A DNA stretch of 64,000 bases, from NCBI GenBank assembly GCA_963764165.1, contig CAVXRD010000002.1, forward strand, positions 3,232,001 to 3,296,000. The letters run 5' to 3'. Source of the DNA: an uncultured Verrucomicrobiae bacterium (GTDB lineage Bacteria; Verrucomicrobiota; Verrucomicrobiia; Limisphaerales; Palsa-1400). The position numbers were made by a program, and so were the translations under genes. A model generated the notes under the pieces. It was not told the DNA's origin. It saw only the letters and a list, made by a program, of their open reading frames with translations, and made no database searches. Numbering within the stretch: position 1 is the first letter of the stretch; every line of letters begins with the position of its first letter. Below, in pieces: positions 21,405-46,079 of this stretch.

Positions 21405-22163
21405 TCATCCGCGCCTGGCTCTGGCATGAGATCCCTGTACCGCACAGAATTGATCCAAATCCCTTCTCACGCTGACGTAATGTCGAACCCACCGTCCCAC
21501 GTCCACGCCCAATCGCTTGGCAAGGTTGATCATGGTGTCATTTCCACTCGCATACTCCAAAATTGCGGTGATGCGCAGCGCTGGGTTTTCCAGGAAAGGT
21601 CCGCCAAAGCCGGCGGGGTCTTCGATCTTGTCCGCTTCGATTTCCTTCGCTCGTCTGGCTTTAAGTTCTTCGATCTCTGCTGGCGAGAGCGTCAGCGCTT
21701 TCCTGGCCGGCGTCGATTTGGGGAGCTTTGGAAGCGACCGGAAGGGCCTGGAGTTTCTCGAGGCTGCTTGGCACCACTTATAAACTGCGGAAAGACTGGC
21801 CGTCTTGCCGCTCCAACTTTCGTACCAGACAAGAACGTCCTTCGCGTTGGTAAACTCGTTCCCGAGCTTTCTCTTGAGCTCGCCCAAGCGGTTCGAATTT
21901 AGAAGAGCGTCCCTTCGGAATGTGAAGCCCACCAGTTGGTTATAAAGGCGCGCTCGCACAATCTTGAGGAGGGCAAATACATGCTTGCGCCCACAGCCAG
22001 CCTGGCGCGCGAGGACTTCGGCGCTTAAGCCATGGCCGTTTAGAATCGCGTTGAGAATCGCCTTGCTGGCATTGGTGCGTTCCCCAGCAGGCGTCCCCTG
22101 CTTTTGGCAGAATGACAATGCCTCCTTCACCGAAACCTCTGATATGGAAATCCGACGCGCCAT
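21405..22163 (-). CDS. Hypothetical protein, possible HTH DNA-binding
   Basis: 252-aa ORF with HTH-like SAEVLARQAGCGRKHVF. Confidence 0.5.
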   Translation of the reverse strand: MARRISISEVSVKEALSFCQKQGTPAGERTNASKAILNAILNGHGLSAEVLARQAGCGRKHVFALLKIVRARLYNQLVGFTFRRDALLNSNRLGELKRKLGNEFTNAKDVLVWYESWSGKTASLSAVYKWCQAASRNSRPFRSLPKLPKSTPARKALTLSPAEIEELKARRAKEIEADKIEDPAGFGGPFLENPALRITAILEYASGNDTMINLAKRLGVDVGRWVRHYVSVRRDLDQFCAVQGSHARARRG

Positions 22164-22539
22164 GGGAAGATTATAAGTCCCCTGTTTATAATTTTCAATG
22201 TCTCAAACAGCCGCAACAAGGGGGTCGCAAACGATAAAACGAGCTATGAACGATCAGGTTCAGTGGGGAAAGCAAACGAAACGGCTCCGCGAAATGCCGC
22301 GAGGACGGATTGCCGCCTCGTTGTCGATAATTGATGCGGCGGCCCTCCTGGGTTTGCTGACGCCTCGTGAAAAAGACGGAAAGGAAGGGTCATGAGCGCC
22401 GTCCGTGGCAATTACCCAGCTTCATTGGATTCCGCGAGCAACGCAGAGTTTCTGAAATTGCCACGCCTGCCGGGCCGCGTGAACTCGTGGCAAACAGCGG
22501 CCCTTTTTGGTTTCGACCCATCGCACATTCCCATCCTAG

Positions 22540-23360
22540 GGCCTGTTAACACTAACGTAACGCCTCCACGATGAGCGCGAGGACGACGAATCCGGAGTAC
22601 AACGCATCCAATTTGTCGAAGCGACTGAAGACTCGGCGGTAGCTTTTGAGTCGGCGAAAAAGCCGTTCAATCTCATTGCGGCGTCGGTAAAGGGTTTGGT
22701 CATACTCCCACGGATTTAAGCGTCGGGGGTTAGGAGGAACCACTGGAGCGTAGCCCAATTCCCGCGCCTGTTGCAGAGTCTCGTCCCCTTCATAGGCGCT
22801 GTCCATGATGAGTGGAAGCCCTGCCGGAACCGGCCCGCCCGCCTGCAAAAGCTCGCGTCCTTGCGGCGCGTCCCCCGCCTGGCCGGGGGAAAGCTTGAGC
22901 ATTAAGGCGCACTGGGCATTCGCGGCAACCAGATGAATTTTGGTGGTGCAACCGCCTCGGGAGCGCCCGATGGCCTGTGGGCCGTTTTTTTTAGCGCCCC
23001 GGTGCCGTCGGGGTGAACCTTGATCGTCGTGCTGTCCAAGCAGACTTGCTCGATCCGGATCGCCAGGATTTGCTCCTGCTGGAGCCGGGCGAAGACTCGA
23101 TCCAGCACGCCCGCTTTGCTCCAGCGGTTCATGCGGGTGTAGATCGTATGCCAGTTGCCAAAATGTTTTGGCAGGCCGCGCCATTTGCACCCATGCTCCA
23201 CCACATAGAGCAGGGCGTTGAGAAGTTGCAGATTGGTCATGCTCACGTTGCCGCGCTGCCGCGGCAGACAATCAGCAACCCGCTGATATTGACTCTCTGT
23301 AAGCTCCACCCAGCCATTTTGCCTTGTCGCCTATAAAATGTCAATTAGTGTTAACAGGCC
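22540..23360 (-). mobile_element. IS5-family insertion sequence (two-ORF, IS427-like)
   Basis: 16-bp perfect TIR GGCCTGTTAACACTAA; CTAG on both flanks (22536-22539, 23361-23364); orfA/orfB joined at an A8 slippery run near 22985-22992. Confidence 0.93.
22552..23309 (-). CDS. IS5 transposase (probable programmed -1 frameshift)
   Basis: GCKWRGLP..FGNWHTIY.R, LDST, GRSRGG.TTKIH, DSAYE, YRRRNEIERLF. Confidence 0.9.
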
Positions 23361-23573
23361 CTAGTCCAGGCCAAGCTCCTGAAGCCGATCGGCAGTCCCC
23401 CGACAAACGCGCCCAAATACTTCTTCACCGCTTACGTTCTTCGACTCGCTGCGGATGAACGCTGGATGACGCGCGCCAGCGAAGCGCTCGTGAGTCATTG
23501 GTCCGTCCGAAACCATAATAAGTCAAACAAAAGGAATACGCCTTAACCACCAACTTCCAGCCAGGAAAACCAT

Positions 23574-25779: not shown

Positions 25780-26847
25780 CTATGCAACTTTTGGCACCTC
25801 GGCCTCGGGTTGCAGGGTTACGATTTTGCCTTCAGCGACAGCCTTGCGCCGGGCCTCTTCATACACTTCAAGCGAGCGGATTTCGCCCTGCGCTTTCTTG
25901 GCGTAGGCGCGGTGAACAATTTTTGAACTATGCCCGAGGGCGCGTTGCGCGTAGCGCTCGGGATAGCCGTTGTCGGCCGCGCGTTCGGCCCAGGCGTAAC
26001 GATATGAGTGCAGCGTGATGCCCTCGATGCCGAGGCCATCGCATCGCTGGCCAAACTCGGTGGCGCGATCCGCTTCGCGCACGGTGATCAGGTAGGGGAA
26101 GAGCGGGCCCTGACGCGGTCGGTGCATAATCACTTCCCAGGCCTTGCCGCCAATTTGCGTGCCGCCGAGATGTTTTGTTTTCAACCGATCATAAGCGAAG
26201 CAGCGTTTGCCATAATTGATATCCTCGGCCAGGCGTTGGGCCAGGTCCGATTGGGAAGCGCCGAAGTGCCAGCAGAGTTCGTAAAAGTTACGGCGTTCAG
26301 GATTCTTTTCGCGTTCGATAATGCGCAGGTGTTCCTCCCAAAGGATGGCGCGAGCTTCCTTGTGAACAATCTTCGGGAATTTCTTTTTGGGCAGAATGCG
26401 CGTCGGCAGCCAGCCCATGTCACAGCAGTGATTCTGGAGACGGCGGAGGTAAACATTGGTGCTGACGGTGCCCAGACGCAGCACGGCCAGGAACTCGTCG
26501 GACGTCGTTGAAACGACCACTTTGGGCCGGATCAAATTGAAGGCTTCGTCCTTCATTGCGGTGTTCCATCGGTGCAGGGTGGGGCCGTGTTTGTCTTTCA
26601 CGATGTCCACCATGACGTCATTCCAGGTGCGGGTGCAGAACAGTGGATCGGCAGCCGACAAATACGTCATCCCCATTTGGCGGTTCATGTGGGGATTTCG
26701 AAACGCTTCGTTCCTGGCGTGGACCAGACGCTCGGCTTCCTCTTCATCCTTGGTGCGAAGGCTGGTGCGGACGCCGGTTTCTGTGTCTTCGCAATAAAAG
26801 GTGCCGCCCCGGCTGCCCACCTTCACGGTTCTGAATCTGTTTTTCAC
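25780..26847 (-). CDS. Tyrosine integrase of element 3
   Basis: HSYRYAWA, LGHSS..VHRAY. GTG start chosen by homology to the other two integrases. Confidence 0.9.
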   Translation of the reverse strand: MKNRFRTVKVGSRGGTFYCEDTETGVRTSLRTKDEEEAERLVHARNEAFRNPHMNRQMGMTYLSAADPLFCTRTWNDVMVDIVKDKHGPTLHRWNTAMKDEAFNLIRPKVVVSTTSDEFLAVLRLGTVSTNVYLRRLQNHCCDMGWLPTRILPKKKFPKIVHKEARAILWEEHLRIIEREKNPERRNFYELCWHFGASQSDLAQRLAEDINYGKRCFAYDRLKTKHLGGTQIGGKAWEVIMHRPRQGPLFPYLITVREADRATEFGQRCDGLGIEGITLHSYRYAWAERAADNGYPERYAQRALGHSSKIVHRAYAKKAQGEIRSLEVYEEARRKAVAEGKIVTLQPEAEVPKVA

Positions 26848-26949
26848 AACTGTCACGCTTTCAACATAACAGCCCTGATTCCGAACACTTAACGAGCAGT
26901 GGGCGCCTACGCGCCGAGACGTCAAGCCTACGCCCTGGCTAACGCGCCA

Positions 26950-26972
26950 GGTGTGCGTTTTGGTGTGCGTTT
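26950..26972 (+). repeat. Arm-like direct repeats of element 3
   Basis: GGTGTGCGTTT x2, 12-bp period, between the integrase and att. Confidence 0.6.
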
Positions 26973-27029
26973 GGCCATTTTGGCCCCCTTTTTGGCCTTT
27001 TCCGGGGAAAACTCCGAAGGAGTTCCGAG

Positions 27030-27054
27030 TTGGAGGCGAGGGTCGGAATCGAAC
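27030..27054 (-). repeat. att core (copy of the tRNA-Cys 3' end)
   Basis: TTGGAGGCGAGGGTCGGAATCGAAC, identical to 46004-46028. Confidence 0.95.
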
Positions 27055-27304
27055 GAGGAACCCAAACCGTTCCGAGCCTAACACACTCTGTTTCAAGGCA
27101 TACTGTAGGTGATTTTCATAGGTGAGTCAAACAACTTTTCTTTGCTCTTTCATAGCCCGCCATTGCTCGCTTACCGCTTATAAATTGCTCCGCAGGTGAA
27201 GATTTAGGTGAAGAATCCGGTGAAACTTTTCCCAACCGCTCTCCAGAATTCCGTCGCTAATCAAACTTTTTGGTTGCAACTGTGGCGAACTTGATTTAGA
27301 AAAT

Positions 27305-27385
27305 CCGCCGAAAGCCACCTGTGGCAGCGATGGCGGGAGTATAATCCCGTAGCTGTTGAACGCAGGCGGCTTTTTTGCTGCCTGC
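27305..27385 (+). promoter_or_regulatory. Structured leader, candidate cis-regulatory RNA
   Basis: CCGCC/GGCGG stem enclosing a GCCA-CCTG-TGGC hairpin; competing GCGGGA/TCCCGT pairing; downstream GCAGGCGGC/GCTGCCTGC hairpin. Confidence 0.45.
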
Positions 27386-27418
27386 ATCCAGACGAAATGA
27401 TTAACCGAAAGGTTCGTT

Positions 27419-30082
27419 ATGCGAATGCACTTAAAGGCAGTATTCTGTTTGCTTTTCCTCCTTCCTACATTAGCTCACGCGCACGCCGCTGGCGGCGCAG
27501 TTAGCGGCTTGCGCGATGGTTTCAATCATCCGCTTCATGGATGGGACCACCTTATTGTCATGATTGGCGTCGGATGGTGGGCGGCTCAACAACGGGGCCG
27601 CGCCGTGTGGTTGATTCCGTTGGTCTTCGTCGGCGTAATGATCGTCGGCAGAGTGGTCGGAGCAAGTGGGCTAACACTGCCAGGAGCCGAGTTGGCGATC
27701 TTATTGTCCGTGGCTGTGTTTACCGCTCTTGTCGTGCGAAAATCCAAAATGGAGCTGACCGCCAGCGTGCCGCTCGTTGGATTTTTCGCATTTTTCCACG
27801 GGTTCGCCCACGGCGAAGAAATGCCCCCGTCGGTAGGCGTTATCATGTTCGCCACCGGCTTTGTGCTGGCGACAGTCCTGTTGCATGCCATTGGGCTGGC
27901 GACGGGACGATTCATCGCCTTTTTGACGGCATTTGCCGTAGGCGGTTCCGCCGTCGCCCAAACAACAAATGCTTCCACCCATGTGCAAAATCCGTCGGCC
28001 ACAAACCAGCCTACTGTGCTTCCCGAAGTCGTGGTCACGGGCCGTCAAGACAGCATGATCGGCATTGCCAGTTCCGCATCGCAAGGAACCGTGGGCGCCA
28101 CTGAGATTCAGGACCGGCCAATCCTTCGTGCAGGGGAAATTCTGGAAACGGTGCCTGGGGTCATCATCACCCAGCACGCCGGGGGCGGCAAAGCCAACCA
28201 ATATTTTTTGCGCGGGTTCAATCTTGATCACGGCACCGACTTCGCCATTTTCCTGGACGACATGCCGTTGAACCTGCCATCCCACGCGCACGGGGAAGGG
28301 TATTCAGACATGAACACAGTCATCCCGGAGTTCGTGCAAAGGTTGAACTACGAAAAAGGACCGTATGACGCGGACGTGGGTAACTACGGTTCAGCCGGCT
28401 CCGCCCACCTAGAGTTTTACAAAACGCTGCCGCAGAATTTCATCACCGTGGAAGGCGGCACGTTTGGATTTGAGCGGGGTGTCTTTGGAGTTTCGGAAAA
28501 AGTCGGTTCGGGCAATTTGCTTTATGGCGGCGAAGCTTACCACGATGACGGCCCCTGGGTGCATCCTGACGATTATTCAAAGTTCAATGGCATTGTAACC
28601 TACAGCCAAGGCGACAACCACACCGGATTCAGCATCACTGGAAAGGCTTATCACGGAAAATGGAATTCAAGCGACCAGCTTCCAGACAGCGCAATTCCGC
28701 TGGTCGGTTATTTCGGAACGCTTAACCTCTCTGACGGTGGCAACTCAAGCCGGTATAGTTTGCAGGCTGAATGGCATCGGCAGGACGAGAATTCCGAAAC
28801 CAAAATCACGGCCTACGGCTTTTATTATGACCTCGATTTGTTTTCTGACTTTACCTATTACTTGACAGACCCTGCGCTCGGCGATCAATTCGAGCAGCAA
28901 GATCGCCGCTGGGTCGGCGGACTGGACGCGCGACATACCATTTTCAGCCAACTGTTCGGACATGAATCGGAGGCTTCCTTTGGTTTGCAAGCCCGCAATG
29001 ATTGGATTAATAATGGTCTTTACCAAACAGAAGACCGGAATCGCGTTAACAAAACGGATATTGACACCGGAACTATTCTGCCCGCCACAACCCAAGCAGA
29101 CCGATTCACCGACACAGAAGTAGGAATCTACGCTGAAGGCAAGGTCCAATGGTCGGAGAGATTCAGATCCGTTTTGGCTCTTCGCGGCGATCTGGATTAT
29201 TTTGATGTGACCAGCCTGAGCAATCCGGCTAATTCCGGGACATCCGCCACATTGCTTCCCAGCCCAAAGTTGAGTTTGATTTTTGGTCCTTGGGATAAAA
29301 CCGAGCTTTATGCCGAAGGCGGATTTAGTTTTCACAGCAACGACGGTCGCGGCGCGACGCAGACAGTCGAGCCGATCTCAGCCGACAACCCCAATCCCAA
29401 TACGCAGGCAACGAAGATCCCGGGCCTAATTCAAACCAAAGGCGCTGAAATTGGAGTTCGTACACTGGCAGTGCCGCATCTTCAAAGCACACTTTCGCTT
29501 TGGTATCTTTACAGCGATTCGGAGTTGCAGCAGGACGGAGACACGGGCGGAACTATTGCGTCAAAGCAACCAAGCAATCGGTATGGCGTGGAATGGGCCA
29601 ACTATTTCACGCCGCTGGAACACCTCACTCTGGATTTTGATGCGGCTGAATCAGTGGCGCGATTTACCTCCGCTGACAGTGACGACGCGGCCCCCGTTGC
29701 CCCCGGAAGCGTCACGCTGGGTTCCGGCGGCACACGTGTGCCCGAAGCAGTGGGAGCCGTGCTTGCGGCAGGCGTTACTCTGCACGACTGGCACCGGTTC
29801 TCCGCCAGTCTGCGCCTGCGCTACTTTGGCCCTCGTGATTTAACTTCAGACGGCATTTACCGTTCGAGTGCTACCATGCTGCTGAACGCCGAAGTCGGGT
29901 ATCAATTCAACAAGACCTGGCGCGTCTCAGCAGAATTATTGAATCTTCTTGACAGTCGCGATCATGATATTGATTACGCTTATGTTTCTCGGGTGTCGCC
30001 AGCATTACGGCCAGCATTTAGTGATGTCTTTCATCCGGTAGAGCCGTTTCAACTGCGGATTGGAGTAACGGCAAAATTTTGA
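27419..30082 (+). CDS. HupE/UreJ Ni/Co permease fused to a TonB-dependent receptor
   Basis: HPLHGWDHL and FHGFAHG (HupE/UreJ), then LPEVVVTG, QHAGGGKANQYFLRGFNLDHGTDF, FHPVEP and terminal F, all in one frame. Confidence 0.88.
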   Translation: MRMHLKAVFCLLFLLPTLAHAHAAGGAVSGLRDGFNHPLHGWDHLIVMIGVGWWAAQQRGRAVWLIPLVFVGVMIVGRVVGASGLTLPGAELAILLSVAVFTALVVRKSKMELTASVPLVGFFAFFHGFAHGEEMPPSVGVIMFATGFVLATVLLHAIGLATGRFIAFLTAFAVGGSAVAQTTNASTHVQNPSATNQPTVLPEVVVTGRQDSMIGIASSASQGTVGATEIQDRPILRAGEILETVPGVIITQHAGGGKANQYFLRGFNLDHGTDFAIFLDDMPLNLPSHAHGEGYSDMNTVIPEFVQRLNYEKGPYDADVGNYGSAGSAHLEFYKTLPQNFITVEGGTFGFERGVFGVSEKVGSGNLLYGGEAYHDDGPWVHPDDYSKFNGIVTYSQGDNHTGFSITGKAYHGKWNSSDQLPDSAIPLVGYFGTLNLSDGGNSSRYSLQAEWHRQDENSETKITAYGFYYDLDLFSDFTYYLTDPALGDQFEQQDRRWVGGLDARHTIFSQLFGHESEASFGLQARNDWINNGLYQTEDRNRVNKTDIDTGTILPATTQADRFTDTEVGIYAEGKVQWSERFRSVLALRGDLDYFDVTSLSNPANSGTSATLLPSPKLSLIFGPWDKTELYAEGGFSFHSNDGRGATQTVEPISADNPNPNTQATKIPGLIQTKGAEIGVRTLAVPHLQSTLSLWYLYSDSELQQDGDTGGTIASKQPSNRYGVEWANYFTPLEHLTLDFDAAESVARFTSADSDDAAPVAPGSVTLGSGGTRVPEAVGAVLAAGVTLHDWHRFSASLRLRYFGPRDLTSDGIYRSSATMLLNAEVGYQFNKTWRVSAELLNLLDSRDHDIDYAYVSRVSPALRPAFSDVFHPVEPFQLRIGVTAKF

Positions 30083-30151: not shown

Positions 30152-30478
30152 TTAAGTGACGCTTTCTGAATGGGGAGGTTCGGGCGGGGACTGTTGTCGC
30201 CGCTCCCGCTTAAGCCTCCAGTATTTGGAAAGTTCTTTCGTGGCCTTATGAAGCCAGTCGCGGTCCGTGGCCAGTCGAAGGATTTCCACTGCAGCAAACC
30301 ATTTGGGAGCGTTGGGCGCGGGGTCCCCGAGCGGTTCGAGTTTTCCAGTTGCGATCAAGAGTGGAATATCGTGCTCCGCAAAGCCGAGCAACCGGGCCGT
30401 TGCGCCGACGTCGAGACGGGCGGGCAAGTCTTTTGCCGCCCATGTCGAAATTGCCGTTTTTGTCAATTCATCGACCAT
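30152..30478 (-). CDS. Excisionase-like HTH protein of element 2
   Basis: ARLLGF..HDIPLL...GKLEPLGDPAPNAPKWF; paralogs in the other two elements. Confidence 0.75.
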   Translation of the reverse strand: MVDELTKTAISTWAAKDLPARLDVGATARLLGFAEHDIPLLIATGKLEPLGDPAPNAPKWFAAVEILRLATDRDWLHKATKELSKYWRLKRERRQQSPPEPPHSESVT

Positions 30479-30509: not shown

Positions 30510-31385
30510 TTAAATCGCCCCTGCGTCGCTTTGGATGGCCACGAGGAAAGGAACTAGCAAGATTAAACGCCAATCCCACCCTTTGACCTTGGAACCGACA
30601 TCCGCTTTCGCCGCTTCAATTCCAATGCCCGCCGCCGTATTGTAGGTTGCGGCCAGCTCGTAATCCATGCGGAAGTAACCGGAATACTGGCAAATCTGTC
30701 CCGGTTGTCCCGAGAACGGTTCAGGATACGCCGCAAACCGAAAGATCTTGGGCGCAGCAAATGGGCCCACCCGTTTCTTTCCGATGTTGACCACGTAAAT
30801 AAATTCCTGGGTGAACGAGCGAAACATCTTGTCGACGTTCTGCGGTTGTTGCGTATAAACATAAATGTCGTCCCCCAATTTCCTATGCTGAGAGAGATAG
30901 AAAGGAAACTCATCCGGGGCATCCGCGTATTTTCGGACGTTGTAAAACAATTGCAGTTCGTCGAGGTGATAAATAACGCCCTGCCCTGAGAATCTTCCGC
31001 CCTTGAGCCATTGCGAGAAATCGAGGCAAACCGGATTGCGGCTCCCTTTTTCGCGTTCCAGCCGAGGCACATTGTTTGCCTCCTGATGGCGCACGCGATA
31101 AAATTCCGCCAATTCTCCCTCATCCAAAATCCGAATCCGCGAAGGCTGAAACACCATCCCATCGGCATCCGCCTCTTCTCCCGGCAAAGCGGGCCGACGA
31201 TGATCGACCAGGCAGATGTCTTGTGCCGGAAAGCGCTTCGACAGAAAGTCCTGCAAGGCCGCTAGATTCACGGGCAGATTTGTCACGATAAGCCTGTCAT
31301 CGTGAAGCAGTTGGTCCAGAATGGACACCATGCCCCGGTAAGACTTGCCCGCTCCCACTTTCCCGCAGATGAAGTAAAGGCTCAT
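30510..31385 (-). CDS. Zot/inovirus pI-like ATPase, C-terminally short
   Basis: N-terminal GKVGAGKS, IVTNLP, YHLDELQ, QHRKLG.DI...TQ, followed by a TM start. Confidence 0.85.
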   Translation of the reverse strand: MSLYFICGKVGAGKSYRGMVSILDQLLHDDRLIVTNLPVNLAALQDFLSKRFPAQDICLVDHRRPALPGEEADADGMVFQPSRIRILDEGELAEFYRVRHQEANNVPRLEREKGSRNPVCLDFSQWLKGGRFSGQGVIYHLDELQLFYNVRKYADAPDEFPFYLSQHRKLGDDIYVYTQQPQNVDKMFRSFTQEFIYVVNIGKKRVGPFAAPKIFRFAAYPEPFSGQPGQICQYSGYFRMDYELAATYNTAAGIGIEAAKADVGSKVKGWDWRLILLVPFLVAIQSDAGAI

Positions 31386-31684
31386 GGCTCGGGGTTATTG
31401 CCTATATTCCCGTCATCACATTCTGGGCTTTGGATGGCTTTTTCCTCTCGCAGGAAAAGCAATATCGACGGCTCTACTCTGACGTTGCTGCCAAGAAAGA
31501 GGCGGATATTGACTTCAACATGGACGCTTCGAAGTTCGAAAGCGAAGTCGGTGGTTGGTTTTATTGCGCCTTCACCAAGACACTCGCTCCGTTTCACGGC
31601 GCGCTATTATCTACCGTTGGTCTGGTCACGTTCGGTCTATTAATGAGGATTGTTTTACAACTTCTTCCGGGTTATGCCAAATAA
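31382..31684 (+). pseudogene. 5'-truncated membrane protein of a type found beside TIR genes
   Basis: In-frame WLGVIAYIPVITFWALDGFFLSQEKQYRRLY; N-terminus cut at the Zot start. Confidence 0.55.
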
Positions 31685-31698
31685 CCAAAACACTTGAT

Positions 31699-31968
31699 AT
31701 GGCAAAACAAGTATTTTTCAGTTTTCATTACGACGATGTAAAGACGTTTCGCGCGAACGTCGTTAGAAATCACGGCTTTACAAAAGAAAACGGACAAGAG
31801 GCAGGCTTTTTTGATGCATCTATTTGGGAAGATGCGAAGTTGCATGGTGCCGATTCGGTAAAGCGGCTAATAAACGCAAACCTGGATGGATCAACCGTAA
31901 CCTGTGTTTTAATTGGCACAGGAACCTGGAGTAGGCGTTGGGTGCGGTATGAAATCCTAAAGAGCTAG
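31699..31968 (+). pseudogene. ThsB-like TIR (DUF1863) domain, truncated
   Basis: VFFSFHY, TCVLIG..TWSRRWVRYEI, then an immediate stop. Confidence 0.8.
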
Positions 31969-32068
31969 AAGGCACATAATTGTATGTCATTCATTATAAG
32001 ATCGCGGTTTAACAGTTACAATCAAGGGTTTGCTATCGATAATCTGACTGATTGGCTTCGCCGTTAAA

Positions 32069-32893
32069 ATGAACTCGCAAGAACACAATTTGGCCGGGGA
32101 AGGTCCGCTTTTGACAATCCGTTTTACGGGGCCGACTCTCAATGAGCAGTCGGTGCCGATTTACGATCTTGCTGAAACCCTACTTGCAATCCAAGGAATC
32201 ATCAACAAAGCTGCCTTGCACAAAGACGGGCGGCTTGAAAAGGGAGCGCGACTCCGCGCGGCGGAACGCGAAAGAATTGCGCTCCGCATTGTAAGCCATC
32301 GCAAGAGTTCGGATGTGTGGCTATTGGGATCCGCTTTAACAGATCCGTCCTTTGGACCAATTCTTCAAGGGCTGATTGTGGTTGGACTCGCGGCTGTAGG
32401 CTCCTATGTGGGTAAGAAGGTTTTTGGCACGGGCGAGCAAGCCAAGCATCAGGCGCGCGAACCGCAAACAATACAGGTTTTGGTCGTGAATATTTTCCCT
32501 GAAATACGAACGCTCACACATCGTATTCGAGATGATGGTGAGATTGATGGAATAGAATTGCTTGATGCGAAAAGCACGAGTGAAAAAAGTCTCGTAATCA
32601 CGCGTGAAACTCAACATTATGTAAAGGAGATTGAGAACCAAAAAGTACCGGGCAACAGATGCAAGATTGTCGGGCACATTATGAGACTTCACTTGCAGTC
32701 CTGTCATTTAGATTTAGAGGAGAGATCAGGACACAAGCTTCGAATAAATATGCCCAGCGAGCTTTTCGAGCAGGTGCGGCGACTGGCCAGTCTCCGTGTT
32801 GACGTTGTCTTCGAAGGCGTGCCTCTTTACAAGCTAGGCAACCTCAGTAGTAAGTTTGATGAATTTAACGCGGAGCGGCTTCTTTTACCGTGA
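32069..32893 (+). CDS. Hypothetical protein
   Basis: 274-aa ORF, lower GC than its flanks. Confidence 0.65.
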   Translation: MNSQEHNLAGEGPLLTIRFTGPTLNEQSVPIYDLAETLLAIQGIINKAALHKDGRLEKGARLRAAERERIALRIVSHRKSSDVWLLGSALTDPSFGPILQGLIVVGLAAVGSYVGKKVFGTGEQAKHQAREPQTIQVLVVNIFPEIRTLTHRIRDDGEIDGIELLDAKSTSEKSLVITRETQHYVKEIENQKVPGNRCKIVGHIMRLHLQSCHLDLEERSGHKLRINMPSELFEQVRRLASLRVDVVFEGVPLYKLGNLSSKFDEFNAERLLLP

Positions 32894-32954: not shown

Positions 32955-33514
32955 ATGACTTTCTCTGACCAAAATCACGACGAAATTGTCTTCCGCGTTC
33001 TCTTGCAACGGGAAGAGAACCGGCCAACCCTGACATTCAAGCTGTTGGAACGCTCACTGCCCACCGACCTATTCAGGCAGATCGAATTCGATTGGCGAAA
33101 TTACATCCGCATGGAGGAACTCGAATTCGACTCCGCATTCCAAAAAGCCGTTCGCAAGCACCTCCCAGGCGTTTACTACGTCCTAATGGCTGCGGAATTT
33201 CTGCACAAAATTCCATTTCACTCAGCGCTAGCCCATTTTCTCCAAATCCAGCAAATCCCAGGCCCGCTGCGCGAGGATGAAATCTTCTCCCTTGCCGAAT
33301 TCTTCGCCGACCACGTCCGAAGTACCCGCATTCTCACGCCAGCCGCACCGACAACCCCTCGAACACCACATCACCACGGACGTGTTGCCGCGCCAGATCA
33401 CCAAGAGCCAGTTACAGCGCCACAGAAACCAAGAGGCCCGGTCCGCCGTTGCGCCTTCTGCAAAGAGTTCATAACCGTAAGCGAACTGCAGGGTCATGTT
33501 GACTCCCACCTTAA
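32955..33514 (+). pseudogene. Hypothetical protein with CxxC-x11-HxxxH finger, 3' end lost at a junction
   Basis: CAFCKEFITVSELQGHVDSH, then reads into the integrase antisense strand. Confidence 0.5.
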
Positions 33515-34103
33515 GATGCCACGCCAATCGATAGAACGCATTGCGTTCGGGATTTTGCTCGCGGGCGACAATGGCCAGATGTTCTTCGATGGTAATCGCC
33601 CGCTTTTCCTTGAACTTCAATTTTGGCCATTGCAGACGCGGGACGACCGATTTAAGAAGCCAATCCATGCCAATGGCGTGGTTATGTATCCTGCGCAAAT
33701 AAACGTTCGTCGAGACTTTCCCGTCTGCAAGAGCGCGGTCGAAATGTTCGGCGCGAGTTTCCGCGACCACCAACTTGCGGATGCAATCAAAATTCTTGTC
33801 CTTGATTGCGACCTCCCAGCGGCGGCGCGTCTCATCCGTTTTCTTGGCGACAATATGCTCCATGACCTCTTGCCAGGTGCGCGTCGCCAGCTTTGGGTCA
33901 GCGCCGTTCAGATACACTCGCGCCAAAGACAGATTGAAATGCGGTTGCGACTCCGATTCATTGCGCGCCTGCAAGAGCCGTTGCGCTTCCGCTTTGTCGC
34001 TTGTCTTTAGGGTGGTTTGCTCCCCGGTGATCTTGTTCTTGAGGTAATAAACTCCCCACGGACGCCGTATTAGTCCGAATGTCTGTTTCATTGCTTCACT
34101 CAT
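33513..34103 (-). pseudogene. Tyrosine integrase of element 2, catalytic half deleted
   Basis: Collinear with the other integrases (VSTNVYLRR, NPER..FY.L.WHL), then similarity stops abruptly. Confidence 0.88.
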
Positions 34104-34266: not shown

Positions 34267-34289
34267 TTGGAGGCGAGGGTCGGAATCGA
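34267..34289 (-). repeat. att core (copy of the tRNA-Cys 3' end)
   Basis: TTGGAGGCGAGGGTCGGAATCGA, 23 bp identical to 46004-46026. Confidence 0.95.
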
Positions 34290-34437: not shown

Positions 34438-34806
34438 TCAAGCGGGCAAATGATCTGCCGGAAAATAGGAGCGATATTTCGCGCGGGGGTCGGTCGGATG
34501 GCTGCCAAACGGATTGAAGTTGCCGCAAGGGTGTTGCCAGACACTGCGCCTCTGATTCCAATGGAATCCCATCGCCCAGAGCAACGCCGCAAGATTCGGC
34601 TTTCGCGACGGTGAAACGTCGAGCCAAACCCATTTGCCGACTACTTCTGCCAATTCATAGTGCCTCGGCAGTCTGGTTCTCAAGGAATTCAAAACCGCCT
34701 CCGTGGAAAGTCCACGATTAGCGCAGTGCGCGGCAAATGTTTTTGAAACCGACGATGGCCGGACATTCGCCGGAGCTGACGCTTCATTATGTTTTGTTGT
34801 TTTCAT
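34438..34806 (-). CDS. Hypothetical protein
   Basis: Protein-like AEVVGKWVWL...GFHWNQRRSVWQHPCG. Confidence 0.65.
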   Translation of the reverse strand: MKTTKHNEASAPANVRPSSVSKTFAAHCANRGLSTEAVLNSLRTRLPRHYELAEVVGKWVWLDVSPSRKPNLAALLWAMGFHWNQRRSVWQHPCGNFNPFGSHPTDPRAKYRSYFPADHLPA

Positions 34807-35459
34807 AGCTTTTTTTTGAAACCGCTGTCCGTCACCCTGCCGTTTGCTGCTCGCTTCACAAACGGGGAGACACCGAGCCGGGGCGCGGAAGCGCATTCAA
34901 AACTCAGCGAAAGCTAAAACCGTGACAGTGGCGAAGTGGGAGAAGTGGCGACGCTGGCGCGGTTTTTGATCTCGCTCCTAACTTTCGGCTCGGTGTCGGA
35001 CCAGCGAGCAGCAAACGGTGGGGTGACGGCGGGCGTAAAAAAGGCGAAGACAAACAACCTGACCTGTCCCCGCTCGTTTGGAAATTTCTGAAGCCGTGAG
35101 AGTAAAGGAGCGTTTGGGCTGGCCGCCCGCGTGGGGGAAATGGGGCGCGGATCAGCGGACGGACCAAAAAGCGGAATGGAGCGGCGGATTTAGAAATTTG
35201 CCAAGGGAGCGCCGATTGGGCGAGCGCAAGTCTGTGAGCTTTCGAGGCGTAGTCTTTCAAGGGGAATCGAAAGCTGACAGTCTTGCGCGACAGGGCGGGC
35301 GATCGGGGCATGCACATTGACTTTTTGCGCTGCATGATTAGTTTTAGCCGTGAAAATAACCATTAAAGTTGTTACGGTCGCGCATGGAGGTTGGACCAAA
35401 CCAGACTTGCGGGGAGATGCCATTCAGCAATTTCCGCCGACTTTCAAGAAACTTGATTT

Positions 35460-37150: not shown

Positions 37151-37152
37151 GG

Positions 37153-41139: not shown

Positions 41140-41160
41140 TTCGCGGCCAATTTAGCGCAA

Positions 41161-41234
41161 TGTTTACTGATTGTCAACGGTAATTGCGATTTTCGAGGTC
41201 TGTTTGCGTTTTCTGTGTTTACACCGTGTGAACA
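41161..41234. promoter_or_regulatory. Two operator-like palindromes between divergent HTH genes
   Basis: TGTTTAC-N5-GTCAACG (41161-41179) and TGTTTAC-N5-GTGAACA (41216-41234). Confidence 0.6.
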
Positions 41235-41257
41235 TGTGCCACATTCACCATGAAAGT

Positions 41258-41578
41258 ATGAGTTGCGTGTTTAAGAATCGACTGGCCGAATGCCGTGCCG
41301 CCAAAGGGATCAAAAAATCTCAGCTGGCGTATTACATCGGCAAGAGCCGGGGGTATGTGACGCGCCTGGAGGATGGCGACATTTCCCCAAGTGCCGAGGC
41401 CATGGTGCGCATTGCCCGTTATTTCGGCAAGCCGGTCGAGGACATTTTCCAACTGGTCGAGGAGGGCAAGCAAATGAAGGCGGGCGAATCGACATTAGCC
41501 AATTTCAGCAAAGAACAATTTCCCGTTCGTGTCGGCAACGCGCGGGACTCAGTAACCACGCCGATTAACAGTAAATAA
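41258..41578 (+). CDS. Cro-like XRE HTH protein
   Basis: KNRLAECR...SQLAYYIGKSRGYVTRLE.G...PS...IARYFGKPVEDIF. Confidence 0.85.
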   Translation: MSCVFKNRLAECRAAKGIKKSQLAYYIGKSRGYVTRLEDGDISPSAEAMVRIARYFGKPVEDIFQLVEEGKQMKAGESTLANFSKEQFPVRVGNARDSVTTPINSK

Positions 41579-41586
41579 GAAAGCCT

Positions 41587-41853
41587 ATGCAGATCAAAGT
41601 ACTAGTTATTGACAAGGTGACGGAGACCTTCGACACAAAGAAGGGGGCCAAGACGCTCCACTTGTTGGTGTGTCAGGATCAATCCCGCCCGCCGCTGCGA
41701 AATTCGTTCGATTATGAGATGACGGCGGATGAATTCACCAAGCACGGCGCGGGCCTCGTGGACAAGCTCGTCGAACTCAACATCCGGGATATGACCCAGA
41801 ATTTCGCTGGGCGCATTCGGATGTCGGGGGCCATCCTGAAAGCTGCCGCATAA
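41587..41853 (+). CDS. Small beta-rich protein, probable ssDNA-binding (inovirus pV-like)
   Basis: 88 aa, OB-fold-like strand pattern, coupled to Rep by a TAATG overlap. Confidence 0.5.
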   Translation: MQIKVLVIDKVTETFDTKKGAKTLHLLVCQDQSRPPLRNSFDYEMTADEFTKHGAGLVDKLVELNIRDMTQNFAGRIRMSGAILKAAA

Positions 41854-42353
41854 TGGAAACGGCACTGACATATACGCTGCAACGCGTTTGCTGGCAGTTT
41901 TTCGGCTCTCTGACATTCAAGAGTGCCAAACTGCCGGAACGCGTGCGGCTGACGATGTTCTTTGCCCTCGTCCGCTGCCTGTGCCGCTGGCACAAAGTCC
42001 CCTTTCGCAAATGCGTCTGGGCTTTGCGCCAGGAGCCGGGGGAAATCAGCGGACGACTTCACTTTCATTTCCTGATCGCGGGTTTGCCGCCGTATGCCGT
42101 CCAGGTCGCCACATGCATGAGTATCAAGGCGCAATGGGAAGAACTCGGCGGCGGCATGGCTCGCGTCAGGAAATACGATTCGAGAAAACAAGGTCTCGAA
42201 TACACGTTAAAATGTCTCAGCGTCACGAATGGGGGAGCGAATCTCTATGAAGTGGGGAAGTTTTCCTATTCGGCGGATGAGGTGATGTTGGCGAATGCAA
42301 TCTGGGACCGGGCTAATATTGCACGGGTTTCAGATACCCTTGGCACTGCCTAG
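41853..42353 (+). CDS. Minimal HUH rolling-circle initiator/endonuclease
   Basis: Motif 1 GSLTF, motif 2 RLHFHFLI, motif 3 LEYTLK. Confidence 0.75.
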   Translation: METALTYTLQRVCWQFFGSLTFKSAKLPERVRLTMFFALVRCLCRWHKVPFRKCVWALRQEPGEISGRLHFHFLIAGLPPYAVQVATCMSIKAQWEELGGGMARVRKYDSRKQGLEYTLKCLSVTNGGANLYEVGKFSYSADEVMLANAIWDRANIARVSDTLGTA

Positions 42354-42563
42354 TCGAACGCTCGGCGGCAGTAAATTCGTCAACCGATTCGGGCGGGGGG
42401 TGGAGCGCGCGCGGAGCGCGCGCCCACCCCCTGCCCGATGGCTTGAAGATGAACTCTGTCCAAATGAAATCAACCGAAATGAAAATGCTCTGGAAACTGG
42501 TGAAGCCCAGCGAGCCAGTCCTAGCTGAGAGATGATAAAAACACCGTAATATCATAATACGAT

Positions 42564-43226
42564 ATGAAGCAGATCATTACTAAAGTGGATGTATGCAAGG
42601 CCATTGGCGATTTGGCGGGCCAAGCCAAGAAACCCACGCTGGCCGCCATTCACGCAGCGTTGAATAACCGAGGCTCGATGTCCACGTTGGTGCGTCTAAA
42701 GGCGGAAATTGATGCCGAAGCGCAACCGGTGACAGACTCCCTTGACGGGCTGAAGGCGTTTCGCGAAGTGTGGGCATTGGCTGTCGAGGAAGGCCGTCAA
42801 CAGCAGGAGGGCGCGCTCGTGGAGGCTCGCGAGAGTGTCAAAGCATTGGCTGCTGAAAATGATCGCTTGGAAGGGGTGGCGGTAGCCGCGCACAATCGCG
42901 CCGCCGAGTCGGATATTGCGAGGGCACGCGCCGAAACAGAGTTAATGCAATTTAGAGGCCAGGTGGAAACGGAACTTAAGCAAGCCAGAACCAGCCAAGC
43001 AGAGGCCGCAGCACAAGCAGCCGATGCCTTGCACAAGCTGGCTGCGGATCGCGCAGCACATGCGAATCAAATCGCATTACTCCAGGACAGTGTGGCTGCA
43101 GCGACACGCAAAGCCCATGATCTTGAATTGAATTTGGTCCGTGCTGAAACACTGGTGCAGAAAGAGCAACGTCGAGTTACGACGCGGAAGTCGGCTCGGA
43201 CGGGAGGACAAGAAATTGCGTCATAA
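42564..43226 (+). CDS. KfrA-like DNA-binding coiled-coil protein
   Basis: KKPTLAAIHAALNNRGSMSTL N-terminus plus an Ala/Glu coiled coil. Confidence 0.75.
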   Translation: MKQIITKVDVCKAIGDLAGQAKKPTLAAIHAALNNRGSMSTLVRLKAEIDAEAQPVTDSLDGLKAFREVWALAVEEGRQQQEGALVEARESVKALAAENDRLEGVAVAAHNRAAESDIARARAETELMQFRGQVETELKQARTSQAEAAAQAADALHKLAADRAAHANQIALLQDSVAAATRKAHDLELNLVRAETLVQKEQRRVTTRKSARTGGQEIAS

Positions 43227-43242
43227 CCGGGGACTTCTTGAA

Positions 43243-43572
43243 ATGAACACGGATAAACAAGTTCAAGGAAATCGACCTGCCTGCGTGGGAATGGAAGAGG
43301 CGGCGGCGATTTTCGGATGGCCAAATTATTACCTGCCGTTTCTCATGAGGGCGGGGCATCTAAAGCCGCTGGGCAAGCCAGCGCAGAACGCTCGCAAATG
43401 GTTCGCAAGGATTGAAATCGAGCGGATGAGCGCCGATCCTGTTTGGCTCGACAAGGCTATTCGCATCGTGGAAAGGCAGATTCAGGAGATGAACAAAAAA
43501 GCAAAGGGACAAACAACCATCCTTGACAACAAATTAGGCCCGAATAACGATACAGGGAACGGCCACGAATGA
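43243..43572 (+). CDS. Excisionase-like HTH protein of element 1
   Basis: EAAAIFGW...LPFLMRAGHLKPLGKPAQNARKWF. Confidence 0.75.
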   Translation: MNTDKQVQGNRPACVGMEEAAAIFGWPNYYLPFLMRAGHLKPLGKPAQNARKWFARIEIERMSADPVWLDKAIRIVERQIQEMNKKAKGQTTILDNKLGPNNDTGNGHE

Positions 43573-43606
43573 CCCGTCAATAAATTTGCAAGCTTCTCTG
43601 TTTTTC

Positions 43607-44173
43607 ATGCCATCGAATGCTTACACAAATCACCTCACCGTCCTGTTAAGTGACGTCAGAGAGTTGCAGACCGCCCACAGTCAACTAAGAACGGGTGCGG
43701 TGGGGCGTCAGTGGGGCTTGGGCGCGTTAAGCCGTGCCGCAGTCGTTCTGGCCGTCTCTTCGTGGGAGGCATACTTGGAAGAAGTTGTCCGGGAGTGCCT
43801 TGAGGCTATTCGTCCGGGAGTGCCGCCTCTTGGCATTTGGCCAGCACTCAACGCTTCGATTCGCGGCGACCTTGGACGCTTCAATACACCAAATGCGGAG
43901 AATACTCGCAAACTGTTCTTGGACAGTTTTGGGATCCCCAATATCACTGGTGAATGGCATTGGCGCAATTGCACGCAGGAACAGGCATGTATCGCACTAA
44001 ATGATGCGCTCACCAAGCGTCATCATATTGCGCATGGCGTCAATCCGAGACCAACTATTCACAATGCTTACGCGAAATGGTTGCCGGGATTTATCGGCAG
44101 GTTGGCGCAGCACACCGATGCAGGACTCCAGCAACACTTTCAAACCACGTTCCACATCAACTTGGCATGGTAA
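43607..44173 (+). CDS. HEPN-domain protein
   Basis: AAVVLAVSSWEAYLE, FNTPN, Rx4H motif RHHIAHG. Confidence 0.8.
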   Translation: MPSNAYTNHLTVLLSDVRELQTAHSQLRTGAVGRQWGLGALSRAAVVLAVSSWEAYLEEVVRECLEAIRPGVPPLGIWPALNASIRGDLGRFNTPNAENTRKLFLDSFGIPNITGEWHWRNCTQEQACIALNDALTKRHHIAHGVNPRPTIHNAYAKWLPGFIGRLAQHTDAGLQQHFQTTFHINLAW

Positions 44174-44814
44174 GATTCTCGAAACATATGGTTTGCGTGG
44201 GTTGAAATGTCCAATGACAGGCGCGGCATTTATTCCGTCGGTTCAGGCTTCGCGCGGCAATGAAAAAGTTTGATTGTTAAGCTGCCGTGTGGAATTGATT
44301 TTGTGTTGAACAAACGTTCAACGGCTGAAAGTAAAAGTGCGTCTGAAACCTGCGATGACGAGTAAAATTTCACCTAAACCCAAAAGAAAAGTGAAAAATT
44401 ATGCCCGATCCCAAAGAAGCCGGTATGGACAAGCAAGCGAATCAGCCCGAACCGAAGATGCGCGAATACATACCGTATAAAGGAATGGTATTCCTGTGCA
44501 GGGCGACGCTGACGCGCCATGCGACGGTGAATTCGAGTGGATGCCAGACAACGGTGATTAGACGAAATTAAACAAGTCGGCCAGTGAGTGTAAGCTTGCT
44601 GGCCGATATTGTTTGGCAGCTTAAACACTCTCCTTTCCCGTCGGAAAGGGCGCGGAGCGGGGAGGCCAGCGCAGCGGTGGGCAGAGTCCAGAGGCAATGC
44701 CTCTGGCGGCGGGGTTTGGGGACGGCAGGGGAGTCCCCAACGAACCAAAACCGGTTTGGCCGTCACCGGCCTAGCTGGGGCGTTGGGGCCGTGTCGCAAA
44801 AATTGGCGGGTGCC

Positions 44815-45840
44815 TTACGTCGCCGGGGCAACTTTCACGGAAGCCCGCTGTTCGTAATCCTCCAAGGATGGAATTTTCATCAAGGCCCGTTTCGCGTAGG
44901 CGCGATGGACGGCCTTGCTATTGTGCCCTAATGCCTCCTGCGCGAATCGTTCGGGATAGCCGACCGTCTTGGCGCGTTCCGCCCAAGCATAGCGGTAACT
45001 GTGCAACGTGACGCCGACAATGCCAAGCTGACGGCAACGCGAAGCAAATTCCGTGGCGCGGTCGCCAGCGCGGACGCCGGACAAATAGGGGAAAAGTGGG
45101 CCTTCGCCGGGCAAGTCCTTGAGCAGATTCAACGCCTCACCGCCCAAATGCACTAGTACCGGCACGCCGGTTTTCTTCCGTGTAAAACTCACCGTGCCAT
45201 TTGTCCAGTCCACGTCTTGCCCCTTCAAGTTAGCGATGTCGCCTTGGCTCGCGCCAAGGTGCCAGCACAATTGATACAGCGTCTTGCGTTCGGGGTTCCC
45301 TTCGGCGGCAATGATTCGCTGGTGTTCCGCAAGGGTGATGGCGCGTTTCTCCTTGTAGTGAATGGCGGGCCATTGTCGGCGCGGAATGACCGTGGCGGGG
45401 AGCCAGTTCATATCAACAGCGAAATTGTGAACCTTCCGCAAAAACGCGTTGGTTGAAACCGTGCCGGAACGCAACACGGCCAGCAAGTGCTCAGCTTGCG
45501 TTTCGATCAAGACACGGTCGAGGATCGAGGTGAACGCTTTGTCCTTGGCGGCGGATTTCCATCGCGTTTGCGTGGGGCCGGTTTTGAAGGCGATAATTTC
45601 TTCCAGCACGTTTCCCCAAGTGCGAGTGCTCACGAGTGGGTCACTGTGGCGGAGATAAACGCGGGCCAGGCTCAAGTTCATGGCGGGCTGTTTGCCTGCC
45701 TCGTTCATGGCCATCAGCAGCCGATTTGCCTCGGCTTTGTCCTTGGTCTTGAGGCTGGTAAATGTTTTGGTGGTGTCGTCGAAGGCGTAATAGACGCTCT
45801 TGCGGCGAAGGAATAAACGATAACGCAGTTTCATGTTCAT
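44815..45840 (-). CDS. Tyrosine integrase of element 1
   Basis: HSYRYAWA, LGHNS.AVHRAY; adjacent to the tRNA att. Confidence 0.92.
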   Translation of the reverse strand: MNMKLRYRLFLRRKSVYYAFDDTTKTFTSLKTKDKAEANRLLMAMNEAGKQPAMNLSLARVYLRHSDPLVSTRTWGNVLEEIIAFKTGPTQTRWKSAAKDKAFTSILDRVLIETQAEHLLAVLRSGTVSTNAFLRKVHNFAVDMNWLPATVIPRRQWPAIHYKEKRAITLAEHQRIIAAEGNPERKTLYQLCWHLGASQGDIANLKGQDVDWTNGTVSFTRKKTGVPVLVHLGGEALNLLKDLPGEGPLFPYLSGVRAGDRATEFASRCRQLGIVGVTLHSYRYAWAERAKTVGYPERFAQEALGHNSKAVHRAYAKRALMKIPSLEDYEQRASVKVAPAT

Positions 45841-46004
45841 GCGTCATCCAGCCTACCGGGGCGAAGATTCCGTTAGTCAGGCAATAGCGGGAGAATCCTC
45901 CCGAATTGTGGCGCAATTCTGGCGCAATCCGAAAATTGTTAGCCAAACTGTTAGCCATTGACTTTCCGTGTCTCCTAACTCCTTGCCGCGCACGCGGTTA
46001 GAAT

Positions 46005-46079
46005 TGGAGGCGAGGGTCGGAATCGAACCGACGGATACAGCTTTTGCAGAGCCGTGCCTTACCACTTGGCGACCCCGCC
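46005..46079 (-). tRNA. tRNA-Cys (GCA)
   Basis: GGCGGGGTCGCCAAGTGGTAAGGCACGGCTCTGCAAAAGCTGTATCCGTCGGTTCGATTCCGACCCTCGCCTCCA: cloverleaf, GCA anticodon, encoded CCA. Confidence 0.97.

Follow-up and report, generated by a model that had tools for sequence, protein, structure and literature searches.

What kind of mobile element has accumulated at the tRNA-Cys gene of an uncultured Verrucomicrobiae bacterium, and could an element without particle genes travel as filamentous phages do? The window that we analyzed is a 64,000-nucleotide stretch (contig C2, positions 3232001-3296000) of a 7.0-Mb genome in 5 contigs that is 97% complete. A first-pass annotation had described positions 21405 to 46079 of this window as a tandem of at least three sibling integrative elements. 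We find that the three units are not equal siblings: they are one intact particle-less replicon (element 1), one ruined complete inovirus (element 2), and one decayed integrase/helix-turn-helix (HTH) island (element 3), and only element 1 carries a replication initiator (Rep) with a single-stranded DNA (ssDNA)-binding protein (SSB). In our reading, element 1 is an intact island at a tRNA gene that has a replication module of the filamentous-phage type, lacks particle genes, and is likely a satellite extruded by a helper inovirus; we give this reading a probability of roughly 0.55. Below, L-numbers denote related loci from other assemblies or metagenomes, G205 is another genome, and G000 is the source genome.

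Three units at one tRNA gene

The integration target and the attachment (att) cores are these:

46005..46079, minus strand: tRNA-Cys(GCA), the target, whose 3' end is the att core 46004-46026
34267..34289, strand not given: att core between elements 1 and 2, an exact 23-bp copy
27030..27052, strand not given: att core between elements 2 and 3, an exact 23-bp copy

The recurrence of the tRNA 3' end that had been pointed out at 27030 and 34267 is exact: the 23-bp sequence occurs at 27030, 34267, and 46004 with 0 mismatches, and 100 shuffled sequences gave 0 matches. Every core is followed by an integrase homolog, as had also been described, all three lying on the minus strand with 45 to 53% mutual identity. 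Element 1 spans 34290-46026 (11.7 kb) and element 2 spans 27053-34289 (7.2 kb), while element 3 is open-ended. Because contig C2 holds no fourth att core, even with up to 4 mismatches allowed, "at least three" elements becomes exactly three att-led integrases, and neither the left end of element 3 nor position 21405 as an island boundary is established. The small HTH gene said to recur in every unit was found in all three, with the copy in element 3 split by an IS5-family element.

Given that att cores and homologous integrases are common to the three units, the tandem might be suspected to be an assembly artefact, a concern already raised in the first-pass annotation. We consider this scarcely credible. 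The integrases are only 45 to 53% identical, the stack is placed inside a 3.6-Mb contig, the junction between elements 1 and 2 is present at 95% nucleotide identity in L037 (genome G205), and further tandem arrangements occur in L099 and L115. With the same junction in L037 and tandems in L099 and L115, the stack is therefore biological.

Two att-like tRNA-Cys cores also occur 2 kb apart at C1:1390075 and C1:1392099, with no tRNA nearby, flanking a 394-residue gene; they are possibly a secondary-site insertion or a remnant. As the distal end of element 3 they were ruled out, being unlinked to it.

Gene content of element 1

34438..34896, minus strand: small gene of unknown function at the far end, conserved and recurring in related islands
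35460-36236, plus strand: adenylate/guanylate cyclase domain, cargo (domain scans)
36254-37324, minus strand: HNH nuclease, cargo (domain scans)
37153-40077, minus strand: GloVer-repeat surface protein, cargo (domain scans)
40172-40753, minus strand: ImmA/IrrE-type metalloprotease (Pfam/PHROG scans)
40750-41139, minus strand: cI-like repressor (Pfam/PHROG scans)
41171..41578, plus strand: Cro-like HTH_3 regulator, divergent from the repressor; its true start probably lies further in
41587..41853, plus strand: OB-fold SSB of 88 residues, its stop overlapping the Rep start
41853..42353, plus strand: HUH rolling-circle initiator Rep of 166 residues, PF23343-like (motifs, predicted fold)
42389..42449, plus strand: predicted double-strand origin, a GC hairpin (42389-42438) with a C-GGA-G loop, then GGCTTGAAGA
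42564..43226, plus strand: KfrA_N-like coiled-coil accessory gene (weak domain match, E value 0.0085), rare in relatives
43243..43572, plus strand: small HTH with LxPLGxP..NA.KWF (homology among units; no Pfam match), putatively Xis-like, or recombination directionality factor-like, by size and position
43586..44173, plus strand: RiboL-PSP-type HEPN cargo gene (domain scan)
44815..45840, minus strand: integrase 1, a full-length tyrosine recombinase of 341 residues (profile scans, alignment)
45936..45959, with copies at 34386-34421 at the other end, strand not given: arm-type repeats, TTGTTAGCCA-like (repeat family D14), likely integrase arm sites

Profile and fold searches recovered every part that had been proposed for element 1, namely, a repressor with ImmA, a divergent Cro-like gene, an SSB-like gene, and an HUH Rep. 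The morphogenesis genes of filamentous phages are missing. No pI gene lies between the att sites of element 1, the only pI of such type in the genome being the truncated copy in element 2; profiles from related prophages matched no coat, pIII, or pVI gene genome-wide, and all open reading frames (ORFs) of element 1 were otherwise assigned when checked for membership in these families. Pfam and PHROG scans of the element ORFs likewise gave no primase-helicase, terminase, or capsid-size gene, and a Pfam scan gave no match to a MOB relaxase family and no coupling protein. In sequencing run X2, from a related strain, variants omit the HEPN gene (joint 43499>44850) or the KfrA-like gene (joint 42471>43250), in line with swappable cargo slots.

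Two noncoding blocks, at 44600-44760 and 34904-35063, are conserved in 13 and 5 related loci, respectively, and are candidates for a single-strand origin or a packaging signal.

Rep, SSB, and the predicted origin

Does element 1 encode a working rolling-circle replicon? The three HUH motifs of Rep are present (FGSLTF, HFHFL, and YTLK), and H70, H72, Y117, and Y132 are invariant in 25 aligned sequences. The match to PF23343 scores 20.2, below the Pfam cut-off of 27.8. In the predicted structure (predicted local distance difference test [pLDDT] 75, with residues 113-135 poorly modelled), the best PDB match is SIRV1 ORF119 (Z 8.1, root-mean-square deviation 3.2, 107 residues aligned), beside which stand numerous ferredoxin-like folds of similar Z; parvovirus and geminivirus Reps score lower, and matches in BFVD include microvirus replication initiators. 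Motifs and model together indicate that Rep is an HUH nickase.

The SSB model (pLDDT 90) is an OB fold that aligns with SSBb over 81 residues (Z 8.7, root-mean-square deviation 2.7). The protein weakly matches the SSBs of inoviruses OH3 and B5 and is 30 to 33% identical to the product of the gene preceding coat or Rep in complete inoviruses. Its best 50 PDB matches include no classical gene V structure of filamentous phages, which is still compatible with such a relation.

The hairpin downstream of Rep is far more stable than expected by chance (z -5.0; reached by 0 of 200 shuffles). Of the 54 distinct loci having 130 bases 3' of Rep, 51 carry GCTTGAA after Rep and 38 have a stem of at least 9 bp, a length that 0.1% of shuffles attain; most exceptions have 8 bp and then a bulge, or a 4-base loop. 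Outer stem positions vary among C-G, G-C, and A-T pairs across loci, and the combination of hairpin and motif in element 1 is the sole such site in the source genome. In the accessible text on pC194-type origins, the nick site is CTTGATA (PMC10378824). Because the GCTTGAA motif resembles that site, the double-strand origin would be nicked at G|A, with the predicted nick between 42445 and 42446 (GCTTG|AA).

Both genes have evolved under purifying selection. Computed against the window sequences with 51 usable sequences for each gene, the median ratio of nonsynonymous to synonymous substitution (dN/dS) is 0.10 for Rep (median dS 0.44) and 0.08 for SSB (median dS 0.97), values that mark the family as maintained elements and not fresh ruins.

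Upstream of SSB, a 276-residue gene was considered as an alternative initiator and rejected, having no Pfam match and no HUH motif. A helical protein of 270 to 310 residues and of no known family (L135:5799-6629 and homologs) occurs upstream of SSB in 15 loci, which include both complete inoviruses and particle-less elements.

An integrase family without the box-I arginine

Integrase 1 lacks the box-I arginine, and its residues R221, K223, H280, R283, H306, and Y315 are invariant. All 29 distinct full-length integrases of the family lack this arginine (G-A/G/S-S/A-Q-x-D stands there), and R221, two residues before K223, is invariant in the same 29. In the IntCTnDOT subgroup, as far as the accessible account goes, the box-I arginine is also absent and a conserved arginine lies further downstream (PMC8138268). 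The likeness is one of motif, and by this analogy R221 may substitute for the missing arginine.

Distribution of the particle-less family

Is element 1 an isolated case? A metagenome scan gave 135 Rep relatives, and the best 80 of these (75 to 97% identity) were kept. None of these best 80 loci has pI, coat, pIII, or pVI; an HTH or integrase gene follows Rep within 1.5 kb in 50 and within 8 kb in 4 more, 2 have at least 6 kb lacking Xis/Int, and 24 end too early. The 54 closed loci amount to 42 distinct ones. Complete att-bounded particle-less units are found at several tRNAs (L120, 4.3 kb, tRNA-Val; L059, 7.8 kb, tRNA-Pro; L062, 8.6 kb, tRNA-Cys), with L121 (8.1 kb) and L038 (10.3 kb) as further examples, and they use at least three integrase families. 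These relatives bear out the earlier suggestion that small rolling-circle replicons of inovirus descent form a family of integrating elements.

Rep is present in 35 of 301 genomes of the host order and in 7 of 401 genomes of the phylum. An SSB-anchored search, with a profile built mostly from particle-less forms and hence a ratio skewed toward them, returned 53 matches in 41 of 401 genomes: 23 in closed particle-less loci, 8 with no morphogenesis match in 7 kb, 5 with Rep plus morphogenesis genes, 2 with coat next, 2 with SSB only, and 13 at contig ends. SSB is coupled to Rep in 82 of 100 loci, and cI or ImmA was matched in only 16 to 20 of 100. Rep had no match in GenBank phages or PLSDB plasmids, and a search of IMG/VR with Rep gave one distant complete inovirus. 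Terminal repeats indicative of circular contigs were absent from the fetched loci, and 0 of 91 CRISPR spacers of the source genome match any fetched locus.

Two more pI-less islands, at C2:469475-472117 and C4:26950-30388, combine a long PF23343 Rep with a small HTH and an integrase and form, to judge by these genes, a second branch of the same element kind. The CRISPR array itself (C1:185956-192543, 92 repeats) has one spacer with 33 of 37 bases matching C4:327232-327264, a site next to a DUF5131 homolog. Next to the array, C1:194000-210500 holds tandem elements with the same small Rep as element 1 (39 to 46% identical), once accompanied by an SSB-like stretch, as well as a CHC2-type primase, a XerD-like recombinase, and Rhs-like genes, labels assigned by reading the sequences.

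Element 2, a deleted inovirus prophage, and element 3

27419..30082, plus strand: HupE/UreJ-TonB receptor fusion, an insertion that separates the HTH from the right att arm
30152..30478, minus strand: small Xis-like HTH, frame intact
30510..31385, minus strand: pI/Zot ATPase of inovirus type, cut short at the membrane anchor (PF05707, E value 1e-12; PHROG M13 protein I)
31555..32893, plus strand: cargo, a truncated ThsB-like TIR gene and a 274-residue unknown gene (domain/PADLOC scans)
33228..34103, minus strand: integrase 2, truncated, its homology ending at 33513 and the catalytic C-terminal half lost

The Zot/pI-like ATPase reported for element 2 is confirmed by both profiles as a member of its family and turns out to be truncated, at 291 residues compared with 422 to 436 in most relatives at 85 to 89% identity. 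Over 270 codons it is 86 to 89% identical to the pI of L135-L138. Homology to intact prophages begins 11 bases before the pI start and ends near codon 275-285, and the pVI, pIII, coat, and SSB genes upstream are deleted. The integrase homology stops at about residue 195 of 341, so that the catalytic H-x-x-R, H, and Y are lost, and the TIR match covers positions 1-88 of the 162-position ThsB-like profile. Intact structural genes, Rep, and integrase are all absent from element 2, deleted or truncated. The intact relatives L135-L138 run SSB, a coat gene with signal peptide and transmembrane (TM) segment, a small TM gene, pIII, pVI, pI, and HTH or integrase; their pI is under strong selection (dN 0.03 to 0.10, dS at least 1.2), and L138 ends in the same tRNA-Cys core. 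As judged from these remains, element 2 is the wreck of a complete inovirus prophage at the same att site. The relatives L035 and L115 lack the HupE-TonB insertion.

22392..23561, plus strand: HTH of element 3, interrupted at 22536-23364 by an IS5-family element with 20-bp inverted repeats
23574-24662, plus strand: ParB-like protein, cargo (Pfam/PHROG/PADLOC scans)
24626-25759, minus strand: DUF5131, cargo (Pfam/PHROG/PADLOC scans)
25780..27096, minus strand: integrase 3, catalytic domain complete, homology starting near 26811

Rep, SSB, and pI are all missing from element 3, an older integrase/HTH island whose kinship to the others is limited to integrase and HTH.

Descent from complete inoviruses

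Where does the chassis of element 1 come from? In the complete inoviruses L046 and L140, the order is SSB-Rep-(origin)-structural genes-pI-HTH-integrase; the chassis is the same as in element 1, and coat-pIII-pVI-pI stand after Rep. The L140 prophage sits at tRNA-Thr, and its integrase is 65% identical to integrase 1. The hairpin and motif also follow Rep in the complete inoviruses L004, L046, and L141. The intact siblings that the first-pass annotation had named as support, joining integrase, Rep, SSB, pI, and a small TM coat gene, thus exist as complete prophages (L046, L140, and L135+L242), and the possibility that homologous integrases never co-occur with Rep or Zot is contradicted by the same three cases.

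A first Rep tree, thinned from 94 Rep rows to 57, places the window inside a 29-row clade that has 99/99 support and in which no row bears pI. A second tree of 26 rows took closed or pI-bearing rows, setting aside open or unclosed loci and the long or duplicate rows L165, L153, L156, and L142; its starred branches force at least three changes between particle-less and complete states, and the data reject placing all particle-less elements in one clade (p-AU 0.0004) under a grouping fixed after the first tree had been viewed. Because the deepest rows are all complete inoviruses under midpoint rooting of this unrooted tree, block loss is favored over gain. On this phylogenetic evidence, the particle-less state has at least three origins, and the shared gene order indicates that the chassis descends from integrase-bearing inoviruses.

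Could element 1 and its kin simply be recently decayed inovirus prophages on their way to being lost? Elements 2 and 3 are decayed in the same stack, and complete prophages contain close relatives of both Rep and integrase. What speaks against such decay is the size and support of the clade without a single pI-bearing member, the synonymous divergence of Rep and SSB at a dN/dS of about 0.1, and the slot after Rep, which has closed at varied spacings with fresh cargo. We regard recent decay as very unlikely and already largely refuted.

In L135, L137, and L138, coat stands immediately after SSB, and neither Rep nor origin is present there, which had suggested a "split inovirus," in which Rep-less morphogenesis elements complement Rep-only ones. 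This idea was rejected for L135, where a 459-residue PF23343 Rep lies at the far end of a 19.2-kb att-bounded prophage; L137, L138, and L231 start inside the element, so that Rep content is not judgeable there.

How element 1 might move

Building on gene content, att bounds, folds, selection, and chassis descent, we infer a cycle every step of which goes beyond gene content. ImmA would cleave the cI-like repressor and so de-repress cro-ssb-rep-xis, after which Int and the small HTH would excise an 11.7-kb circle. Rep would nick GCTTG|AA beside the hairpin, and rolling-circle synthesis would free the coding strand, coated by SSB. A co-infecting complete inovirus would provide coat, pIII, pVI, and pI for extrusion, and in the recipient, Int would insert the element at a tRNA 3' end. 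Because insertion restores the tRNA 3' end, later arrivals could stack in tandem. Candidate helpers occur in the host order, with pI in 19 of 401 genomes, and the conjugative ATPase PF19044 (TraG/VirB4) was found in 0 of 401 genomes at an E value of ≤1e-10, with 4 candidates scored per genome; these counts favor a phage helper over a conjugative one.

It is also conceivable that element 1 is an integrative mobilizable element, in which Rep would also serve as the relaxase and the replication origin would also serve as oriT, with a conjugative element acting in trans. Two islands of the source genome, at C2:505442 and C2:3567004, carry what we take to be relaxase-like genes and count in favor of this idea. 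In addition, ICEBs1 mobilizes plasmids through the rolling-circle Reps of pC194 and pUB110, as described in the accessible text of PMC5714925. The absence of TraG/VirB4 matches in the 401 genomes counts against it, as do the failure to find PF03135 in the source genome, the lack of a coupling protein in the elements, and the fact that the closest relatives of Rep, SSB, and origin are inoviruses. We consider mobilization by conjugation unlikely.

A fair rival is an integrative rolling-circle replicon that never enters particles, is kept for its defence cargo or for interference with inoviruses, and spreads by generalized transduction, vesicles, or transformation, with Rep and SSB merely stabilizing the circle. 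Purifying selection, defence cargo, the lack of a helper in the source genome, and the lack of a trace in IMG/VR would all fit. This scenario gives no account of why a filamentous-phage SSB is kept with Rep in 82 of 100 loci or how elements whose Reps are 75 to 97% identical came to be found at several tRNAs, with several integrase families, and in several host families, and we think it possible but doubtful.

Several points weigh against a helper-dependent satellite as well. No excised circle, ssDNA, or particle has been observed, and reads from two DNA runs of other strains (shares 0.08 and 0.05) hold no attP joint among the joints listed (15 of 57). There is no resident helper today, because no coat, pIII, or pVI match occurs anywhere in the source genome, and no packaging signal other than the origin hairpin was identified. 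DNA-level sharing of element 1 with complete inoviruses is limited to int, HTH, and origin. The close Rep clade, the SSB, and the origin pattern have no match in IMG/VR; the skew of the SSB-anchored ratio tempers the apparent excess of particle-less forms; and the repressor-cleavage step is not general, because many family members lack cI/ImmA. Finally, scans of Pfam, PHROGs, and NCBIfam gave no family match for an RstC-type antirepressor, with two small unknown genes remaining. On balance, sequence evidence gives good support to the family, to its inovirus origin, and to its having been derived repeatedly, and the satellite step is what we infer from them.

Cargo

We scanned 101 non-core or flanking ORFs of related loci with Pfam and 33 of them with PADLOC. 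Among the matches that lie within elements are type I, II, and IIG restriction-modification, AbiGi, AbiLi/Lii, PD-Lambda-1, a double-GTPase system, and a PIN toxin. For about 60 of the 101 ORFs, no match was obtained. The proposal that these elements shuttle defence and metal cargo is upheld for defence, to which most of the cargo belongs, by the variety of such genes. For metals it comes down to a single case, the HupE-TonB insertion in element 2, and no metal-uptake cargo was found in the att-bounded relatives scanned.

Repeated sequences ending in GTTAGGC occur in the cargo regions of L059/L067 (3700-7200) and L039 (1000-6900). We take them to be attC-like, forming integron-like cassette arrays inside or beside the elements.

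Other features of the window

To the left of element 3, positions 1184-14668 hold TonB receptors and a metal-uptake-like gene cluster that may belong to a larger decayed island. At 17611-20361, within a redox/LysR cluster, three related 119-bp blocks (D6/D8) lie at gene starts, which suggests duplicated promoter-start regions. At 60015-62804, 29-bp inverted repeats spaced 2.7 kb apart are probably an insertion sequence.

Relation to known elements and significance

In RS1, rstB is an SSB-like gene. RS1 and TLC of Vibrio cholerae, according to the accessible text, lack morphogenesis genes, rely on helper filaments, form tandem arrays, and integrate by host XerCD (PMC3545932). Element 1 resembles RS1-phi and TLC-phi, so described, in having a repressor and a rolling-circle initiator without morphogenesis genes, in standing in tandem with a prophage, and in its kinship to the replication region of a complete inovirus. 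Whereas RS1 and TLC use XerCD at dif, element 1 has its own tyrosine integrase and Xis and uses the tRNA-Cys 3' end; its family further differs in a 166-residue HUH Rep, kilobases of variable defence cargo, and the absence of a detectable RstC. pDolos, as presented in the available part of its report, is an autonomous rolling-circle plasmid satellite of the Shewanella inovirus Dolos, and constructs of up to 9.85 kb are packaged (10.1101/2023.11.28.569023). Like element 1, it combines Rep, a repressor, and a putative SSB without particle genes. pDolos is non-integrating, and its genes are described as having no phage homologs, whereas element 1 is integrative and its chassis is homologous to complete inoviruses. 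In its own rolling-circle replicon without morphogenesis genes, element 1 appears to match the satellite kind represented by RS1, TLC, and pDolos.

Pf4-type phages are integrase-encoding inovirus prophages. As far as the consulted descriptions go, L046, L140, L135, and the intact relatives of element 2 belong with these, having tRNA att sites, and tandem insertions are known among them. Element 1 has the inovirus-type Rep and SSB of this group and lacks its pI and coat/pIII/pVI. The survey of Roux et al. 2019 used pI as its marker, and its main text, as accessible, has neither "satellite" nor "Verrucomicrobia" (PMC6813254). Element 1 would be invisible to such a pI-based survey because it has no pI. 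For Vibrio inoviruses, the accessible text of PMC12715192 reports defence hotspots as well as tandem arrays. The Dehalococcoides IME1 elements are, from what is available on them, 21 to 28 kb and pI bearing, and they differ from the element 1 family.

P4-like satellites and phage-inducible chromosomal islands (PICIs) are tRNA integrated and carry an integrase, cI/Cro, AlpA/Xis, their own replicon, and a defence hotspot, with helper-dependent transfer. Element 1 is like them in tRNA integration, integrase, cI/Cro, Xis, own replicon, and defence cargo. In contrast, P4 and PICIs use primase-helicase theta replication and tailed double-stranded DNA helpers, and element 1 has no primase, terminase, or capsid-size genes.

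The literature covered, from which most subscription journals and supplements were absent, gave no account of integrase-bearing, tRNA-targeting, pI-less inovirus derivatives; nothing was found on PF23343, and nothing under inovirus-satellite phrases, the latter a weak search that also missed pDolos. Known filamentous-phage satellites are a handful (RS1, TLC, and pDolos), none with its own integrase in the literature compared, and the element 1 family is best read as RS1/TLC-like satellites with their own tRNA integrase. We propose tentatively, a little short of an even bet, that self-integrating filamentous-phage satellites are a widespread class, equivalent on the ssDNA side to P4/PICI, that arose on at least three occasions when integrase-bearing inoviruses lost coat-pIII-pVI-pI. 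They would now be commoner than their helpers in peat and soil Verrucomicrobia, would be the main shuttle of antiphage systems there, and would be missed by surveys for want of pI, the only inovirus marker.

If inovirus packaging is true, non-lytic transduction of 4- to 12-kb defence islands would be a common route of gene flow in a major soil phylum, one in which a search of 401 genomes, scoring 4 candidates in each, gave no conjugative ATPase. The signature of SSB, 166-residue Rep, hairpin-GCTTGAA, and Xis/Int enables a survey beyond pI-based searches, and the predicted nick site and minimal replicon could yield a first small vector for Verrucomicrobia.

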